In this document: in pieces, positions 4,611-64,000 of the stretch | How the letters are laid out: the number at the start of each line of letters is the position of its first letter | Position numbering within the stretch: the stretch's first letter is position 1 | Virus record (IMG/VR): IMGVR_UViG_3300013830_000006 | Span: 1 to 64,000 of that record | Strand: one strand, 5' to 3' | Source of the DNA: a virus | Taxonomy: Duplodnaviria; Caudoviricetes | DNA length: 64,000 bases | The notes under the pieces: generated by a model | The model's database searches: none | What the model saw: the letters and a program-made list of their open reading frames with translations, nothing else | What the model was told of the DNA's origin: nothing | Translations under genes and position numbers: made by a program

Positions 4611-5417
4611 TTAACCATCGTATTCGTCCCAATCGTCATACGTAGGATTAAAACGATAACCAGTTTTCATTGTGTACTCTGCTTTAGTTAATATTAAATG
4701 CGGATGATTCCAAATCAATTCTGTTAGATATTTTTGCATATCAGGAACTGAGTTCCCGCACGGAGATATCAGTCTCCCAGGTGCATAGTTAGGCATATCG
4801 TAATTTATCTGGCATACATCATAACACCTGTTAGTATCCTCATCAATAGTGACATATTCGTCACAGGAGAAGTGGTATTCAACATTGCCGTCACGTAACT
4901 CTATTCTAAACAGATACGCATTGGCAATGATCCAATTAAGTTTGCTTTCAGTTTTTTTATCGATTTTACTAGAACGATTACAGATAGCTTTTGGCGGTAT
5001 CTCATCTTCATCCTCGTCATGCTCACTGTAATGGTCGTAGCAATCAGCATAAATATATTTTAGTTCGCAAGGCTTATGAGATGTACTTACCCATTTGTTT
5101 TCATTAGAATCAAAATTTACATGTTTCGTGTAAATAGCTTTTTTCAATATAAGATCAGGATGGTTTTTGACTAGTTCAGATACGCAATCAGCCATGTCGT
5201 CGATCTGATCCTTGCATGCATCCAAATGCCGATTGCCTTCTGAGTTATTATGATTAATTTTAGTAGCAAAGCAAACTGTGTCAATCTGACGGTCATCAGT
5301 GATGTACGGATAACATTCGAAGTGATATTCTGTCATGTGATCCCACAAAACAATTTCGAACAAATACGCATGCTTAATAATCTGAACAAGCTTATTACCT
5401 GTTTTTTCATCGATCAT
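4611..5417 (-). CDS. Hypothetical protein made of two diverged ~125-aa repeats
   Basis: IDEKTGNKLVQIIKHAYLF..EYHFEC..PDLILKKAIYT and IDKKTESKLNWIIANAYLF..EYHFSC..PHLILTKAEYT. Confidence 0.75.
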   Translation of the reverse strand: MIDEKTGNKLVQIIKHAYLFEIVLWDHMTEYHFECYPYITDDRQIDTVCFATKINHNNSEGNRHLDACKDQIDDMADCVSELVKNHPDLILKKAIYTKHVNFDSNENKWVSTSHKPCELKYIYADCYDHYSEHDEDEDEIPPKAICNRSSKIDKKTESKLNWIIANAYLFRIELRDGNVEYHFSCDEYVTIDEDTNRCYDVCQINYDMPNYAPGRLISPCGNSVPDMQKYLTELIWNHPHLILTKAEYTMKTGYRFNPTYDDWDEYDG

Positions 5418-5532
5418 GATTAACTCCTTAATAGTTGCTTAATAAATTGACCATATGAATAATGCATGGAAATAATTAATTTGAAAAAAAAAATAAAACC
5501 CAGAGTCTTTCGGCTCCGGGTTCCATTTCTCA

Positions 5533-6099
5533 TTACTCTGCCAGAGCATCAGGATCAATTCCCGATGCCTCCAGCATTTTACGAGATCGAATCTCAATCT
5601 GAGCCATTGTTACTGGCCCGATGAGATCGAAAATCTCATCTTTTGACGGTACAGTTGTTGCACCGTCAATGACGAATTTTCCGGTTCTTTCCCAGACCTC
5701 CAGTCTGTTGATTCTGTCCAGGAGATCAGCTCCGGCAGCTGCTCCCAGTTCATTATACATCTTTTTAAGAGCCATCAAAAGGGAGTGTCCTTCTCCCATT
5801 TCGACGGCTTTTCCGTCGGCGGCGACCTCGTAACACATCGCCTTTTTAGAGCAATGTGCGTAGAAGCACGCCACCTGAACTTCCAGCATGGTCATGCCGG
5901 GTTTTAGCAGAATGTGCCAGTCTGCTGCTGGGTCATCAAGATGACCGATTTCATGGCAAATAATGCCAGGAAATTTCCTGACAAGATCCACCATGGAAGG
6001 ATCGATGACTATGACGCCACGGCTAGTATCGGCCACGGCGCCATATACGCCAATTGCTTCAACGACGACGGTATGATTAAACATAACAAATGAATCCAT
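5533..6099 (-). CDS. HExxH zinc metallopeptidase-like protein
   Basis: CHEIGH plus downstream EVAAD; GGAGG RBS; more GC-rich than background. Confidence 0.65.
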   Translation of the reverse strand: MDSFVMFNHTVVVEAIGVYGAVADTSRGVIVIDPSMVDLVRKFPGIICHEIGHLDDPAADWHILLKPGMTMLEVQVACFYAHCSKKAMCYEVAADGKAVEMGEGHSLLMALKKMYNELGAAAGADLLDRINRLEVWERTGKFVIDGATTVPSKDEIFDLIGPVTMAQIEIRSRKMLEASGIDPDALAE

Positions 6100-9200: not shown

Positions 9201-12187
9201 ATGAGAATTATAGAAAAGCGTGTCGTGAGTGCGCATTTGGCAGAATATTTATAACGTTTAAGCCTGCTGAATTAAGAAAGATCTTTAATATTAAGAAGTT
9301 TTCGAAAAAATTTATAGAAATAGCATTGTTTTCGGGAATCATGCACGAGCGTGGTCATACTTTTACACCTATGAAGTATTTTAATAAAATGCTTAATAGA
9401 GGAGTTTTTGATAAAACTTATACAGAGTTATATGCTAACATGTATGCTATTCCTAAAATACGTGAAAAACTTGAAGAATTAGGATTACCAACAAAGATTA
9501 CCAAAGAACAAGTTGCATCTGTATATGTAAGAGATAAACGTAATACTCCTTATCTTAAGAGTATGCCGGATATCGATATAGGTATAGGTATTAGTAAATT
9601 TAACAAATACATAACAGATGGTTATGATACTAATGTTCCTAATTATCCTGATGTTTCCAAATATTTGGATAAACCTATTTCAGTGAAAAATAAATTCAGT
9701 GTTAATGCAATTACCTCAATATTTGATAATCCATTTAACGTTATATCCGGCGCTATTGATAAAGTTAAATCAGTATTTGGTCTTGAAGGATTAGATCGTC
9801 CTGTTAAACCCAGATTAGGTAAAATACATTTCTACATTACTGTTACTTCTACCGGTGATGAACTTAATCCCAGTGCAGTTAAGATCAGAGGAATGCTAAT
9901 AGAAGTTAAATTAGGTCAGTCTCATGCAGTTATGAGAAGAGTACTTAATTATGATGGAATAACATTTAGAACTCAGGATCCTCAGAAGTTATCTAAATCT
10001 ATTTTAGAGAAAGCTTCTGATTATCTGCATTGTACTGAGCATAAGATTAAATCAGCTGATATTACAGTTATTCCTAATGCAGCTCCTCTTCCTCAGGATG
10101 TAGCTAAAGCCAGACCTATGACAGCAGAAGAATATGCTAAGGTAACTTCTAAATTGAATAATGAAGAAACACGTGTAGGCGGTAATGAATCTTTTGATGA
10201 ACCTATGATTTCATCAGAAAAACGTTATGAACCTAAACCTAATGATATTCATATTAAATTTGCTGATCGTGTTTTACATTTCAACAGGTATCCGTTAGAT
10301 AAATCTCTGATAGTAGCCGGATTAGATGCATACGATTTAACCGGATACAGTATGGCTGATTTTGAAGGTAAAGATGCTTACTTCAGTTTATTTGCTGAGA
10401 ATGGGTTAGCTGTTAACTATCTTAAAGGTATTGACAGTTTCTATGATCTGTTTGTAGACAATATGACTTATACCGTACTTAAACAGATGCATGAACCTAC
10501 CAATGTGAGAGATCTGTTATTAAGATGCGGTGTACTGTTATCTACTATTGATCATAGAGAAGCATCTTCAGGTGCTAACCATCGTATCAGAGGATATGAA
10601 CAGTTTAATGCTATTCTCTATAACGAGATGTCAAGAGAGTTTGCAGGATATCAGGCAAGACGCAGTAAGAATAATGCTTTCAGTATCAACCCTAAAGCAG
10701 TATATTTAAGAATAGTCCAGAATGAATCTACTATGCCAGCAGAGGCATCTAATCCTCTTGAAGATATTAAGATGTATTCTAATATTACTTATGGCGGTAT
10801 AGGCGGAAGAACTGGTGAATCATTCGTTACTAATGATAGACGTTTTGCTGCAGATGATATAGGTGTGTTAAGTGAAGCAACTGCTGACTCAGGTAAAGTT
10901 GGTATGAATGCTATGCTTTCATTCGATCCTACTGTAGTTAACACTTTAGGTGTTTGCGAATCCAAAGATCCACACACACTTAAGCCAGCTAATGTAATGT
11001 CAATACATTCATTATGTATGCCATTCGCTAACACTGACGATCCCCCTCGTGTTAACTTCAATTCTATTCAGTCAACGCACTTAATGGGAACTGAATACGT
11101 TAATAAGAACCGTGTGCGTACTGGATATGAACGAGTAGTAGCTCATCGTGTATCAGATGATTTTGCCGCAGTAGCAGAGAAAGATGGTAAAGTTACCAAG
11201 ATAGATCATGAAGCCAAACTTATGGAAGTTACCTACAATGATGGTACTAAAAATGTATTCCGTATAGATGATCAATATGAATATGCTGAATCTATAGTTA
11301 TACAGCAGAATCTGGTAACCAATTTCAAGGTAGGTGATAAGTTTAAGAAGCAGGATGTTCTTACTTATAATAAGAACTTTTTCACCAGAGATAATTTCAC
11401 TGGTCAGGCTGATTATACTACTGGTGTTATGACTAACGTAGTTTTCATCGAAACTGAAACTACTCTTGAAGACTCTACTGAGATATCGGAAGCATTATCC
11501 AAGAAGTTAGCTATTGATCCTGTCAATCCTAAAGTAATAACATTATCTGCTAAGTCTAAAGTATATAAAGCATTAAGTATTGGAGATAAGGTAGAGGTAT
11601 CTACACCGTTAATGGTATTCGAAGAGGATCCTGTTGGTGACGATAATGGACTTACTGTTGATGAAAGTACTGTTGAGTTACTTGGCGATCTTAATAGAGC
11701 TACACCTACTGCTGGATATAGTGGTGAGATAGTTCATATTGATGCTTACTATGGTGGAAGTATTTCTAATATGAATCCGTCAGTAGCTAAGTTAGTTAAC
11801 GCTGCTATAGCTGAAGTTAACGCTGCATCTAAATTAGCATCTGGAAGTATGAGAGCTAATGAGTTTATTAAATCAACTCAGGTACCGATAGGCAGTAAGT
11901 TTAAAGGAATAGAGTTTGATGAAGATACAGTGATGTTCATCTATTATATCAAAGAAAGAATACCTCATAGTACTGGTGATAAGTTAGTACTCTGTAATCA
12001 GCTTAAAGCTACTACAGCAGCTATCTTCCCTAAACCAGTTCAAACTGAATCAGGTGTACCTATTGACATGTTCTTTTCTCAAAGAGGTGTCAATGCACGT
12101 AAGTGTTTAAGTCCATTCCTGACTGGTATAATTTCAAGAATAATAGAGAAAACAGAAAAAAATATAATCAAAGATTATTTTGGATAA
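6203..12187 (+). CDS. Virion RNA polymerase beta-like subunit (phiKZ gp178-like) with a large internal insertion
   Basis: Beta motifs GGIGGRTGES, SEATADSGKVG, DDPPRVNFNSIQSTH, RTGYE, EDSTEIS, GDKL..NQLK. Confidence 0.85.
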   Translation: MYQMEDFDKLMWGDFDYKNRDFPEEATERMNEQRFAREYTVYKMGDLVNKIITLDKKFELPFNSILHVLDNVSYPDNYQDAPRVDENEFIQRESGKKFIYHIRELDTTGPIVYPDKFILRFAGLPTTLMKFRQQQGSNFRYLNKIEEFPTNNLYLIVVNHNPLFRMRMYGRLPYFRIMQQILASVFNTCDKLKYQHRHQFILLPWSSEVYDKSLFIRSRKELTPSTVRKPNSFHFIFMMHLVNFLWEKETTSMLEKLDDETLAQINIILKHNDKYLIFNLKKIKDFNAKNIIYYRFVNQLNLLALMGSEEAEKHQDTINQLIEENKSETENTTFEIKSPEDKTELDEVHQDTVINKLVSVIKPKKEIAPVRAAAAIKTYVPQPKEVMREVKPSGEQVVRRVAIVNKIANVSTISTKETKDTYAEEYVKDLDTETNDFIDNNEDLTPAAKQHFKKLAAKYKECKVDGVYISKLLLDHSDIGLEKEVLNEKVVGFAPDKSALESSTDTFEKSYREKTFKKHFAGVISSFQNKGVFLTDVKQEVIADPLNNYTLYTCSYEDIHSKKSTIKIKIPNIDSNDRFIADGNPMVIKKQRCALPIIKINDHEVALASNYNKTRVVRNTTKAHSFTGYVESFVNNKDKSTASIIFGSLDINEPISYEYCMMAKRFNEITFTNKDKFVLVFDYYHRFNHVKASQVSPEKVEKLENNYGTFFGYNTNDIFFIDNTNQVFAVNKKNFSEDVDFPYTSLLDLLKLSLRDGIEVKKALSEFLTIKILNAELPVMIMLAYRYGLRRMLDYIGIEYYITENRSKIIVSESTPATESFGVNSDRVAGSDELEILYGKDWIKPRNDSKPNIVITNRRAEQDETDYEILQNDRNKNDLTYSLPGTEDLKVFEEDGSTRILWQHLNAGMCIALIADPNPEYLNTDDEATEYARSIIKKYDRNGDLFLMTDDTWAKEICQKYHLDRHPDIVFRGGTVYCSCSGGTILLYEKLFEAFPEAFYENYRKACRECAFGRIFITFKPAELRKIFNIKKFSKKFIEIALFSGIMHERGHTFTPMKYFNKMLNRGVFDKTYTELYANMYAIPKIREKLEELGLPTKITKEQVASVYVRDKRNTPYLKSMPDIDIGIGISKFNKYITDGYDTNVPNYPDVSKYLDKPISVKNKFSVNAITSIFDNPFNVISGAIDKVKSVFGLEGLDRPVKPRLGKIHFYITVTSTGDELNPSAVKIRGMLIEVKLGQSHAVMRRVLNYDGITFRTQDPQKLSKSILEKASDYLHCTEHKIKSADITVIPNAAPLPQDVAKARPMTAEEYAKVTSKLNNEETRVGGNESFDEPMISSEKRYEPKPNDIHIKFADRVLHFNRYPLDKSLIVAGLDAYDLTGYSMADFEGKDAYFSLFAENGLAVNYLKGIDSFYDLFVDNMTYTVLKQMHEPTNVRDLLLRCGVLLSTIDHREASSGANHRIRGYEQFNAILYNEMSREFAGYQARRSKNNAFSINPKAVYLRIVQNESTMPAEASNPLEDIKMYSNITYGGIGGRTGESFVTNDRRFAADDIGVLSEATADSGKVGMNAMLSFDPTVVNTLGVCESKDPHTLKPANVMSIHSLCMPFANTDDPPRVNFNSIQSTHLMGTEYVNKNRVRTGYERVVAHRVSDDFAAVAEKDGKVTKIDHEAKLMEVTYNDGTKNVFRIDDQYEYAESIVIQQNLVTNFKVGDKFKKQDVLTYNKNFFTRDNFTGQADYTTGVMTNVVFIETETTLEDSTEISEALSKKLAIDPVNPKVITLSAKSKVYKALSIGDKVEVSTPLMVFEEDPVGDDNGLTVDESTVELLGDLNRATPTAGYSGEIVHIDAYYGGSISNMNPSVAKLVNAAIAEVNAASKLASGSMRANEFIKSTQVPIGSKFKGIEFDEDTVMFIYYIKERIPHSTGDKLVLCNQLKATTAAIFPKPVQTESGVPIDMFFSQRGVNARKCLSPFLTGIISRIIEKTEKNIIKDYFG

Positions 12188-60974: not shown

Positions 60975-61081
60975 AGATATTATCCTTGATTTTACTGTAC
61001 TATCTTATAATCAGCTGTAAACAAAAAATAAAAGCAGCAGTCTTTCGACTGCTGCCCATTATTACTACAACCTATCAGAAA

Positions 61082-61810
61082 TTACTTAGGTCTCCTACCC
61101 CTGAGATTGATCTTCTGATATTTAGTCGACGAGAAGATCTTTGCCAATTCTGCAAGAGTCGTCTGCTTGTTAATTTCATCGAAGCCATATACTTTAAGTA
61201 CTGACTTGATGGATCTCGAAACATACTTGATGTACTCATGAAACGCAGGGTACACTTCATCAAAAAGATGAACAATGTTGTATTCAACAAATACAGCTCT
61301 TGCCTTATTTTTCTGTGCCAAAAATTCCTTAGTGACTAACTTCAAATCAAGAAGCTGTGCAAACTTACATTCTCCGTACGCATGGTACGTAGGAGAATTG
61401 TAAATCTGCTTTGTGGATTCTACTCCAATTGACAGAAATGCATCAACCAATTCAGCCCATGCAAATTCGGCATTTTCAGGAATCTTCTCTGCAAACGGTG
61501 TATCCAGATCATACACCTGCTTAGATTCTTCCTGCTCTTCCGCCTTATTGTCAGCCTTACTGCCAGTTACTGCAAAGCTAATAGACTTATTTGCAGTATT
61601 CTTCTGAAGAGCATCCAAAAGAAGTTTACTAGCCTCGTCCTTGGTGAACTCACTAATTGCAATACTAGCACTCTCACCTTCCTTACTGCAAACATTAATG
61701 TTCACGGTAAGCCCCTTTTCAAAACCAGATAAAACAGCTACAACCATAGCCGTAATTCTAGAATCAACCATATTATCATTCTCCAAAAACACGCGTGTTA
61801 TTGAAGCCAA
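61082..61810 (-). CDS. Hypothetical protein ending in RGRRPK
   Basis: TTG start with GAGG RBS; TATATATTAC at 61837. Confidence 0.6.
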   Translation of the reverse strand: MASITRVFLENDNMVDSRITAMVVAVLSGFEKGLTVNINVCSKEGESASIAISEFTKDEASKLLLDALQKNTANKSISFAVTGSKADNKAEEQEESKQVYDLDTPFAEKIPENAEFAWAELVDAFLSIGVESTKQIYNSPTYHAYGECKFAQLLDLKLVTKEFLAQKNKARAVFVEYNIVHLFDEVYPAFHEYIKYVSRSIKSVLKVYGFDEINKQTTLAELAKIFSSTKYQKINLRGRRPK

Positions 61811-62413: not shown

Positions 62414-62604
62414 TGGTATCCTCCAGCACTTGTGGGAGTGCTGTCCCTTGCATAGTCAAGTCGCGTGCTATGCCACGGAATTAAACACGTGAGCTTTTAT
62501 GGCTCATATTTAATTCATAAAAATAATATATAGACAAAAAAAAGACACCTACATATTTCTATGTAGGTGCCCATAACTCAATTATACGTATAACTAGTTA
62601 ACTA

Positions 62605-63225
62605 TTAACCATGCAGCGATGTAGGATCCGTGAAATCCAAATGACGGGTTTTAGGATTATCCATAAACTCATCAATGTAATCACGAGTGCTGCTGAGAGC
62701 CAGAGCCTGTTCCGGAGTAAGCTCACGGTCATCAGAATCACTCTTATATTCTACATCAATCTTATTGTCCTTGATATCGTCTGCAGTATACCTTATCTTA
62801 CCAGATTCACATGCGTTCTCAAAAGGATCGTTGATAGGCAACTCTTCAGGTTTAAACCCAAAGCCATCAATTCTCCCTTCGTTGAACATATCTCTGAGAG
62901 GTTCATAAGTAACGATTCCCATCCTCATACAAGGCGGAACACCTCTCATGAGTTCATCCATTGATGAAATCTCACGATATTCATCGAAACACTCATAGCC
63001 AACAGCAATAGCTTTGAGTTCCTCAGCACTCTGACGAATAGGTTCAACTATATGCGTCATGTACGTCTGGTACCCTTCTCGCATAGGATCTGCTTCTGAT
63101 CCAAAGTAACTACGACCACCTGTAGTACTCTCCAGATTATTAAGCAGCATTTGCTGAGAATTGCCACCCAACAAACTTCCTAACGAGAATAGATTACTGT
63201 TGACACGTAACGTGTCAATTATCAT
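62605..63225 (-). CDS. Conserved jumbo-phage protein (phiKZ gp59-like by synteny)
   Basis: ATGA overlap with the upstream RNAP exon; GGAGG RBS. Confidence 0.55.
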   Translation of the reverse strand: MIIDTLRVNSNLFSLGSLLGGNSQQMLLNNLESTTGGRSYFGSEADPMREGYQTYMTHIVEPIRQSAEELKAIAVGYECFDEYREISSMDELMRGVPPCMRMGIVTYEPLRDMFNEGRIDGFGFKPEELPINDPFENACESGKIRYTADDIKDNKIDVEYKSDSDDRELTPEQALALSSTRDYIDEFMDNPKTRHLDFTDPTSLHG

Positions 63226-64000
63226 TTTACCTCCTCATAATAATCACTATCTTTGTCATACTCCATATAGTTCTCAAGCATGACATACATTTGATTGAGC
63301 AATGTTACACTATCACTCAATCCTGGATTTCTCACATTGAATAAGAATTGCGACGGATGCGCAGCAGATAATGCTTCCGCTAACTCATCTTCAAATATGA
63401 AAAAGCCATATAACTCGTCACCATCGAAATGTCGGGATAGATTGTTTATTCAATATTCTAATATTGAACAAACTACCCCCCGCCAAACCGTACGTACGAC
63501 TTTCGCCGTATACGGCTTTCACCGAGTATTTCTACTCGCTAGAATCCTTCTCTCCACTGTTTATTATCACAGTTTCACAGATACTATGATTCCTCCGATT
63601 TCTCTCAAAAGAGAGACGTCCCTTACGAAATTTCGATCTTCAGTATATGAGTTCTTTTAGGTACTGCATATCCTTCAGAGCGCATCCAGATTTTTAATCC
63701 GTACTCATTTGGTAACATAGACTTATTTTAATCAAATGAGCTAGCCCCTGATGACTAATCCAGTTCGTGTTCCTTACCATAAGAACTTCCGCATCTGAGG
63801 TCTTTCCACAAAATACATCGCTATATTCTGCTGTCCTCTTCAAATGCTTTGCATTTTTCAGCAAATCGATCGAACTCAATAAGGCATACCTATGTTTGCC
63901 GGTGTAACTATACTTGCATTAATCTCAAGAGTTTCATCTGCTGGATTAGTCTTGAAATTTCTAACATATAGCAACATCATTGATCCATAATTTAACGTAG
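63222..64000 (-). CDS. Non-virion RNAP beta-prime-like catalytic subunit (phiKZ gp55-like), 5'-partial; exons 64000-63890 and 63430-63222
   Basis: Spliced translation TLNYGSMMLLYVRNFKTNPADETLEINASIVTPANI-D-FDGDELYGFFIFEDE...EEVK* restores NxDFDGD. Confidence 0.92.
63431..63889 (-). mobile_element. ORF-less group II intron (459 nt)
   Basis: 5' GTATG; domain V GAAAGCCGTATACGGCGAAAGTCGTACGTACGGTTTG; domain VI ending CTATCCCGAC; EBS1 CTATGTT complementary to exon end AACATAG. Confidence 0.93.

Follow-up and report, generated by a model that had tools for sequence, protein, structure and literature searches.

The gene that runs off the end of the window analysed here (positions 1 to 64,000 of the 95,576-bp virus record IMGVR_UViG_3300013830_000006, which CheckV estimates to be 36% complete) is read on the minus strand, encodes a subunit of a phage RNA polymerase (RNAP) and is interrupted by a 459-nt insert, at 63889-63431, with the features of a group II intron that lacks an open reading frame (ORF). 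The 5′ part of the gene is a 437-aa ORF at record positions 65189-63876, the last four codons of which are already intron; exon 1 proper consists of 433 codons and the G of a split Asp codon. The ORF has a Zn-ribbon (CxC...CxxC), and the gene matches PHROG 2987 ('RNA polymerase beta subunit'; E 1.6e-81) and, among solved structures, comes closest to gp55 of the phiKZ non-virion RNAP (nvRNAP; 7ogp_A, E 1.4e-19) and to the β′ subunit of the AR9 nvRNAP (E 2e-17). Homology to gp55, the Zn-ribbon, a split β′ architecture and a C-terminal NxDFDGD motif, which is complete only after removal of the intron, are as in a phiKZ-type β′-N subunit, and they support assignment of the gene as the predicted β′-N subunit (phiKZ gp55 homologue) of an nvRNAP. 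No second copy of the β′-N gene was found in the 95,576-bp record. An earlier interpretation of the window made from its letters (hereafter the sequence-only reading) had also assigned the gene to the nvRNAP, in agreement with the 7ogp_A match and with the chimallin-fold gene that adjoins it, as in phiKZ (see below). That reading had added that the ORF list of the window misses the gene entirely; the list does show a stub, of 40 aa only, and this is explained by most of exon 1 (64001-65189) lying beyond the window.

Across the two borders the minus strand reads ...GCA AAC ATA G/GTATGCC ... CCCGAC/AT TTC GAT GGT GAC GAG... (slashes here and below mark the points of insertion), so that exon 1 ends at 63890, exon 2 starts at 63430, and the insert, with GTATG at its 5′ end and AC at its 3′ end, follows the first base of the codon for the first Asp (G/AT) of N-I-D-F-D-G-D. 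The three-aspartate sequence NADFDGD is the Mg-binding motif of multisubunit polymerases. A match to the domain V/VI covariance model had been anticipated near 63431-63530; the Rfam model RF00029 (Intron_gpII, domains V and VI) aligns over its full length with 63431-63520 on the minus strand, with 66.7 bits (E 9.1e-12; the gathering score is 40 bits), and this is its single match in the whole virus record. The domain V with an AGC triad and a GAAA loop and the domain VI hairpin that the sequence-only reading had recognized are both present, and all six domains of a group II intron were located within 63431-63889.

The splice junction proposed from the letters holds to the nucleotide. PHROG 2987 is colinear with the gene across the gap, exon 1 covering profile positions 5-416 and exon 2 positions 419-475 (of 478), and P0007 (65% identity), P0014 and P0017, three homologues that have no interruption, align as far as 63891 and resume at 63428, leaving exactly one residue unaccounted for, the Asp of the split codon. 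Contig L123, which is 98.8% identical to the source phage over the 3.8 kb upstream, likewise has an unbroken ...ACATAG/AC... at the intron site. Thus, intron-less alleles exist, and removal of the insert precisely restores the host reading frame. The predicted spliced product has 502 aa and reads ...PANIDFDGDELYGFF..., with the Asp motif restored because the 459-nt intron is removed; the predicted ligated junction is ...GGCAAACATAG/ATTTCGATGG..., or ACAUAG/AUUUCG in RNA form. An assembly artefact was ruled out, as the same intron is found in eight independent assemblies, and so were an intein and a frameshift, the insert being a non-coding RNA with a ribozyme core.

The anatomy of the intron, assigned from minimum free energy and RNAalifold structures, is given below; intron position p corresponds to window coordinate 63889-(p-1) on the minus strand. 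The exon-binding site EBS1 and the intron-binding site IBS1 are those noticed in the sequence-only reading, which had placed EBS1 in the loop of a stem; the stem shows compensatory changes in 8 of its 9 pairs among the nine introns compared (see below). The AAGU directly 5′ of EBS1 may base-pair with the start of exon 2 over four nucleotides, which are AUUU here and ACUU in relatives, in a δ-δ′-like contact; the alignment of the nine introns is compatible with such a putative pairing, for which covariation offers no test since coding requirements fix the exon side. In the presumptive tetraloop receptor, the UAUGG half is base-paired to the CC of the CCUAA half, beside which there is one compensatory pair.

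Features of the interrupted nvRNAP gene and of its intron (window coordinates; counts out of nine refer to the introns aligned)
Feature	Coordinates	Strand	Evidence or remark
3′ end of exon 1, nvRNAP β′-N gene	63890..64000	-	exon continues to record position 65189
IBS1, AACAUAG, final 7 nt of exon 1	63890..63896	-	7/7 pairs with EBS1
ORF-less group II intron, 459 nt	63431..63889	-	RF00029, structure, relatives
Domain I, positions 6-269, closed by CCUUAU/GUAAGG	63621..63884	-	most helices with compensatory changes
UAUGG, positions 109-113, 5′ half of 11-nt-type tetraloop receptor (ζ)	63777..63781	-	AUGG core invariant in 9/9
EBS1 hairpin, positions 149-187: 9-bp stem (63741-63733/63711-63703), 21-nt loop	63703..63741	-	
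AAGU directly 5′ of EBS1	63721..63724	-	invariant in 9/9
EBS1, CUAUGUU, positions 170-176, in hairpin loop	63714..63720	-	7/7 complementary to exon end AACATAG
CCUAA, positions 229-233, receptor (ζ) 3′ half	63657..63661	-	CCUA core invariant in 9/9
Domain II, short hairpin, positions 270-293	63597..63620	-	
γ nucleotide G294, J2/3 linker	63596	-	Watson-Crick with last intron nt in 9/9
Domain III, positions 297-349	63541..63593	-	sequence core common to Bacillota group II introns
Domain IV, positions 350-369: 6-bp hairpin, GAAA loop, no ORF	63521..63540	-	7/7 pairs compensatory
Domain V, positions 372-405: 34 nt, AGC triad, 2-nt bulge, GAAA loop	63485..63518	-	4/13 pairs compensatory
Domain VI, positions 408-457	63433..63482	-	
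Bulged A452 in CUAUCCC, candidate branch point, 8th nt from 3′ end	63438	-	YAUC context in 9/9
γ′ C459, last intron nt	63431	-	
Exon 2: AT of split Asp, then FDGDELYGFF... (68 codons), stop TGA at 63224-63222	63222..63430	-	

Protein searches gave about 50 relatives of exon 1, many of which end at the motif. Group II introns homologous to that of the window, 441-510 nt long, were found at the same site in L004, L006, L128, L129, L131, L134 and L140, and one of 1053 nt in L007; the introns of these eight independent metagenomic contigs are 54-84% identical to the 459-nt intron at the nucleotide level, and their 5′ ends vary (GUGAG, GUAAG, GUAGG, GGAAG and GAGCU). The alignment of the nine introns has standard pairs in 95% of its pair cells and compensatory changes in 73 of its 103 consensus pairs; the consensus structure was derived from that same alignment, which somewhat favours the structure. 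In shuffled controls 72% of the cells (75% at most) are paired and on average 49 pairs (58 at most) are compensatory, and in controls with slid partners the values are 35-42% and 18-29 pairs; the margin over both is large in spite of the way in which the structure was derived. An automatic alignment gives 55 of 83 pairs with compensatory changes and a covariation term of -19.5 kcal/mol.

Two contacts that the models did not use fix the two splice sites. IBS1 and EBS1 have undergone two independent double changes, to AACAUCG/CGAUGUU in L006 and to AACAUGG/CCAUGUU in L140, and in L128 (AAUAUAG/CUAUGUU) a U.G wobble keeps them paired. The γ-γ′ pair is G:C in four of the nine introns, A:U in four and U:A in one, and even the odd terminal A of the L007 intron is matched by a U at the γ position; one other column of the alignment has the same pattern, and relatedness of the sequences contributes to it. 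The domain V GAAA loop and both halves of the tetraloop receptor are also conserved among the introns. Since the EBS1-IBS1 and γ-γ′ contacts define both splice sites and covary, the intron is clearly under selection to splice; splicing of the 459-nt intron itself we infer only, from its sequence.

We conclude, with a probability of about 0.9, that 63431-63889 is truly a group II intron, ORF-less and structurally complete, of a compact family that occupies one fixed site in the nvRNAP β′-N gene. The match to RF00029 and the covariation among relatives both bear out the group II identity proposed earlier. Some observations weigh against this conclusion. No Rfam model of domains I to IV matches the 459-nt intron at E <= 1, and in the aligned introns there is no consistent complement of at least 6 nt to exon positions -8 to -20 that could serve as EBS2-IBS2. 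In the absence of a maturase, splicing of ORF-less group II introns is often poor, and as the record covers only about 36% of the genome, such a helper may be encoded outside it. Finally, the 5′ end, GUAUG, is a variant of GUGYG. The EBS2-IBS2 pairing belongs to classes IIA and IIB and is absent from class IIC, so that it is not needed for membership of group II. The 3′ AC fits the expected AY, GUAUG is listed as a 5′ variant for AR9, Internexus and c-st (PMC12350094, Table S1), and we accept the boundaries as those of a group II intron. For the ε-ε′ contact, no column of the alignment pairs with intron positions 3-4 in all nine sequences.

A blastn search of 62600-64000 against 50,697 phage records gave no match, a single-protein search of IMG/VR found no close relatives, and an alignment-based search of IMG/VR returned three loci only, at 36% identity. 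The 17-nt pattern ATGGNRAGGAACACGAA occurs at 107 IMG/VR loci, mostly by chance; only L062 and L073, both IMG/VR jumbo-phage contigs, carry related introns, and these match group-II-D1D4-5. An nhmmer comparison relates the compact family to the Internexus intron, with 55.7 bits over a stretch that extends from the receptor region as far as domain VI. Homology to this IIB intron and to those of L062 and L073 may point to class IIB; against such an assignment, the 459-nt intron has neither its own D1-D4 match nor a detected EBS2, and the possible 4-nt pairing beside EBS1 is in the manner of IIA introns. The L129 and L131 introns barely match group-II-D1D4-3 (32-34 bits). The domain III motif is found mainly in Bacillota group II introns. 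A bacterial origin was also considered and set aside: Bacillota introns match in domains III-VI only, with 30-73 bits, and no donor or host can be named. On L062 (IMGVR_UViG_3300028886_000033, 288 kb; 9780-11420), an RNAP β′-like ORF that stops at ...NGDY is followed by a GIY-YIG-like ORF on the opposite strand (10138-10836) and then by the related group II intron (D1D4-5, 66 bits; domain V/VI, 45.5 bits).

Three insertion sites can be told apart within about 100 codons of this gene. Site A (ANI-G/AY) is that of the group II intron of 63431-63889 and its relatives; site B (DFDG/D) lies 11 nt downstream and holds a group I-like intron; and site C (GRNP/T), upstream, holds introns of about 270 nt, with a match to RF00028 in L135. 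At site B the exon ends in U, which forms a U.G pair with the guide sequence GCCGUCA, and the intron ends in G. The site B intron of L152 matches RF00028, whereas that of L123 (3812-4080, ORF-less) gives no match to this model even at E <= 1 and is called group I-like only from its predicted P1 pairing with the U.G wobble and its terminal G. Among more distant relatives, the same gene has RF00028 matches of 75-82 bits at L135:1277-1514, L135:1649-1874 and L152:403-688; the source record gives only a sub-threshold score of 13 bits for a group I intron. In L009 (4812-5790) and in the P0003 contig the site B intron carries an HNH_3 gene. L123, P0003 and L009, with exon 1 identities to the source phage of about 99-100% for the first two and 83% for the third, all lack the group II intron.

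The extremes of occupancy are L129 (3740-4860) and L131, which have introns at all three sites and, between the group II and the group I-like intron, a micro-exon of 11 nt, ACTTTGACGGT, and L127, L130, L137 and P0007, which have none at sites A, B or C; in L136, L138 and L139, sites A and B are empty and an insert of about 270 nt is present at site C. In L123, the 11 nt that separate site A from site B contain three differences from the source phage, all synonymous, as compared with 1 in 880 nt downstream; this local patch may reflect co-conversion, or an intron-specific exon context, after a recent intron exchange. The long intron of L007 (4789-5841; L008 is identical) has a 191-aa HNH_3 ORF (5249-5824) in the loop of domain VI, not in domain IV, and unusual ends (5′ GAGCU, 3′ AA). 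Its HNH gene is homologous to that of the group I-like intron of L009 (36% identity, E 8e-18).

If the intron works as its structure suggests, an unspliced transcript would yield no active subunit, as translation would stop four codons into the intron, short of the motif. The intron RNA would fold and hold the 5′ exon by the 7-bp EBS1-IBS1 helix, and two transesterifications of the standard kind, in which A452 of domain VI would probably be the branch nucleophile, would give the 502-aa β′-N with its Asp motif restored. Because the catalytic Asp codon is split, the polymerase should need splicing, as the sequence-only reading had deduced. Its persistence is best explained if the intron is a selfish element at a site intolerant of imprecise deletion, and it may spread by recombination between co-infecting phages.

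Whether the intron would act unaided is a separate matter. It is possible, if on the doubtful side, that a real intron is not autonomous and is served in trans by a maturase or an RNA chaperone from the phage, from the host or from another intron in the two thirds of the genome that lie outside the record. Many ORF-less bacterial and organellar group II introns depend on trans-acting proteins. The intron is ORF-less, as had been proposed: domain IV is a bare hairpin and no reading frame is conserved among the members of the family. A search for a reverse transcriptase (RT) or maturase beyond the locus, which had also been suggested, found no match to RVT_1 or GIIM in the 95,576-bp record; this cuts both ways, as it leaves the intron without a candidate helper in these 95.6 kb and as they represent only about 36% of the genome. 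The relatives' loci, a few kb around the gene, likewise have no RT beside the intron, and the compact, highly paired structure with its receptor-tetraloop contact is compatible with self-folding. Help in trans has, however, been suggested for Listeria phage LPJP1 (PMC12350094).

The sequence-only reading had further proposed that splicing could be a regulatory checkpoint; in the form considered here, it would time the switch from the virion to the non-virion polymerase. The gene encodes an early, essential catalytic subunit, and the amount of active enzyme would depend on splicing. Occupancy is polymorphic, however: in L123, with a 99% identical exon, site A is empty and another type of intron occupies a position 11 nt downstream, relatives range from no intron, among more distant ones (L127, L130, L137 and P0007), to three (L129 and L131), and L136, L138 and L139 have one only at site C, further upstream. 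A regulatory device that is conserved should not be optional among relatives; such a distribution is typical of mobile selfish elements with a conserved target, and we regard a checkpoint, which no evidence supports, as very unlikely. A decayed, non-splicing remnant, with the gene a pseudogene or split into two separate polypeptides, is scarcely credible. It would account for the variant 5′ consensus, the missing D1-D4 match and the missing EBS2, but structure and tertiary contacts have been kept by compensatory change over nine diverged copies, both exons are in frame and conserved, neither a start codon nor a ribosome site at the junction would serve exon 2 separately, and the record contains no second copy of the gene.

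The phage itself can be placed from the gene next to exon 1. Just past the end of the window, upstream of the polymerase gene, lies a 534-aa ORF (L002:3562-5166, minus strand; record 65562-67166) for which no match was found by sequence in the PDB (phmmer), in phages (tblastn), PHROGs, Pfam or the Atlas. Its AlphaFold model (predicted local distance difference test score, pLDDT, 62; predicted template modelling score, pTM, 0.65) was compared using Foldseek, and the top nine hits are all chimallin/PhuN (E 8e-15 to 4.5e-13, TM 0.53-0.57), the next hit having an E value of 0.03. The ORF has orthologues of 535-567 aa at the corresponding place in relatives, and the order chimallin, β′-N matches gp54-gp55 of phiKZ. 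Judging by this modelled fold and by the gene order, the source is a very divergent chimallin-encoding (nucleus-forming-type) jumbo phage. On the other side of the polymerase gene, a 206-aa gene (62605-63225, minus strand) has its ATG overlapping the polymerase stop (ATGA) and is found in the same place in all relatives; its sole match is PHROG 3254, of unknown function. Further on, 61020-61174 (minus strand) weakly matches the ribosomal protein L20 leader (30.3 bits, as compared with a gathering score of 58.7); this is probably a terminator, with a GC-rich, terminator-like hairpin and a U run after a gene that ends near 61082.

For annotation, these results mean that the gene model needs correction: the catalytic subunit of the middle/late polymerase can be read only after removal of the 459 nt, whereas the protein predicted by automatic annotation is truncated and lacks the Mg-binding motif. 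The NxDFDGD codons emerge as a landing site common to both classes of self-splicing introns. The small family, with its covariation-rich alignment, is a convenient candidate for structural study of the ribozyme, and near-identical phages with different introns are a natural system for the study of intron turnover. A broader conjecture, which we consider unlikely, is that the separation of transcription from translation in chimallin-encoding phages lets slow-folding group II ribozymes, even stacks of group II and group I introns around an 11-nt micro-exon, live in the catalytic codons of an essential early polymerase; the 441-510-nt family would then be a protein-independent ribozyme, and the alternation at the sites would be a competition of intron against intron. 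If so, in the alternation of group II and HNH-bearing group I-like introns in 99%-identical phages, occupation of one site would alter the target of the neighbour's endonuclease.

The sequence-only reading had treated a group II intron in a phage as a rarity, a view that has been overtaken by the description of such introns in phages, including their polymerase genes (Merk, Jones and Eddy, Nucleic Acids Research 2025, PMC12350094). That study found 6,703 matches to RF00029 in IMG/VR, probably including the contig analysed here, which is an IMG/VR record. Group II introns in the polymerase genes of jumbo phages, some of them ORF-less, are thus known: AR9, PBS1, Internexus, MarsHill, S6, PALS_2 and LPJP1 have them, and they are either ORF-less IIB introns of 580-690 nt, such as those of Bacillus phage Internexus (594 nt) and Staphylococcus phage PALS_2 (580 nt), or carry an endonuclease (PMC12350094). 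What is new here is the phage lineage, the exact site within the catalytic motif, the very small size, and the coexistence and alternation with group I-like introns 11 nt downstream. The literature consulted reports polymerase-gene group II introns from jumbo phages of Bacillota, a range extended here to a very divergent chimallin-encoding lineage, and in an Annual Review article of 2025 on nucleus-forming phages, group I introns and endonucleases are treated but group II introns are nowhere mentioned.

The introns of AR9-like phages are the closest parallel. As here, ORF-less group II introns interrupt a multisubunit RNAP gene in Internexus, PALS_2 and LPJP1, and they were detected in the same way, by an RF00029 match and an intron-less homologue. 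The GUAUG start is common to the 459-nt intron, Internexus and AR9 (whose intron has an ORF), and the AGC triad to the 459-nt intron, PALS_2 and two LPJP1 introns. The AR9-like introns, however, are in a virion-polymerase subunit of Bacillota phages, whereas ours is in the non-virion β′-N of a chimallin-encoding phage; in AR9 and Internexus the site is RYPIEQY/QNIYP, about 180 nt before the motif, whereas here it is inside DFDGD. At 459 nt, our intron is 120-230 nt shorter, has no D1D4-5 match and no detectable EBS2, and is smaller than any other phage group II intron of the sets that were compared (the ORF-less ones in PMC12350094, Table S1, have 580-690 nt). The group I intron of AR9 is inserted after GGDYD/.

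In phiKZ, introns in gp55 have been noted (PMC11512511, citing Ceyssens 2014 and Mesyanzhinov 2002), and the gp55/gp56 (HNH)/gp56.1 arrangement concerns the same gene and the same motif, directly after the nuclear shell gene; the subunit in the solved structure is a gp55+gp56.1 fusion. The phiKZ element separates the N from the A of NADFDGD, at a point 4 nt before site A, and has the hallmarks of group I (the exon ends in U and the intron in G) and an HNH gene, whereas ours is a group II intron that carries no gene. Group II introns with a homing endonuclease in place of an RT are known from AR9, PBS1, MarsHill and S6 (PMC12350094), and the related HNH genes of L007 and L009 parallel the shared endonucleases of the AR9-like phages, except that the L007 endonuclease is of the HNH_3 type and in the domain VI loop, whereas those of the AR9 type are EDxHD/Vsr-like and in domain IV. 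Lastly, gp210 of PhiPA3 is an HNH endonuclease encoded by an intron in the virion RNAP gene that acts in competition between phages (Birkholz et al., 2024, PMC11620839). As here, an intron, in PhiPA3 a mobile one, interrupts a polymerase gene of a chimallin-encoding phage, and relatives of our phage carry HNH_3 genes in their introns; the PhiPA3 intron, however, is a group I intron that encodes its endonuclease and has a demonstrated role in competition, whereas the intron described here is ORF-less and known from sequence.

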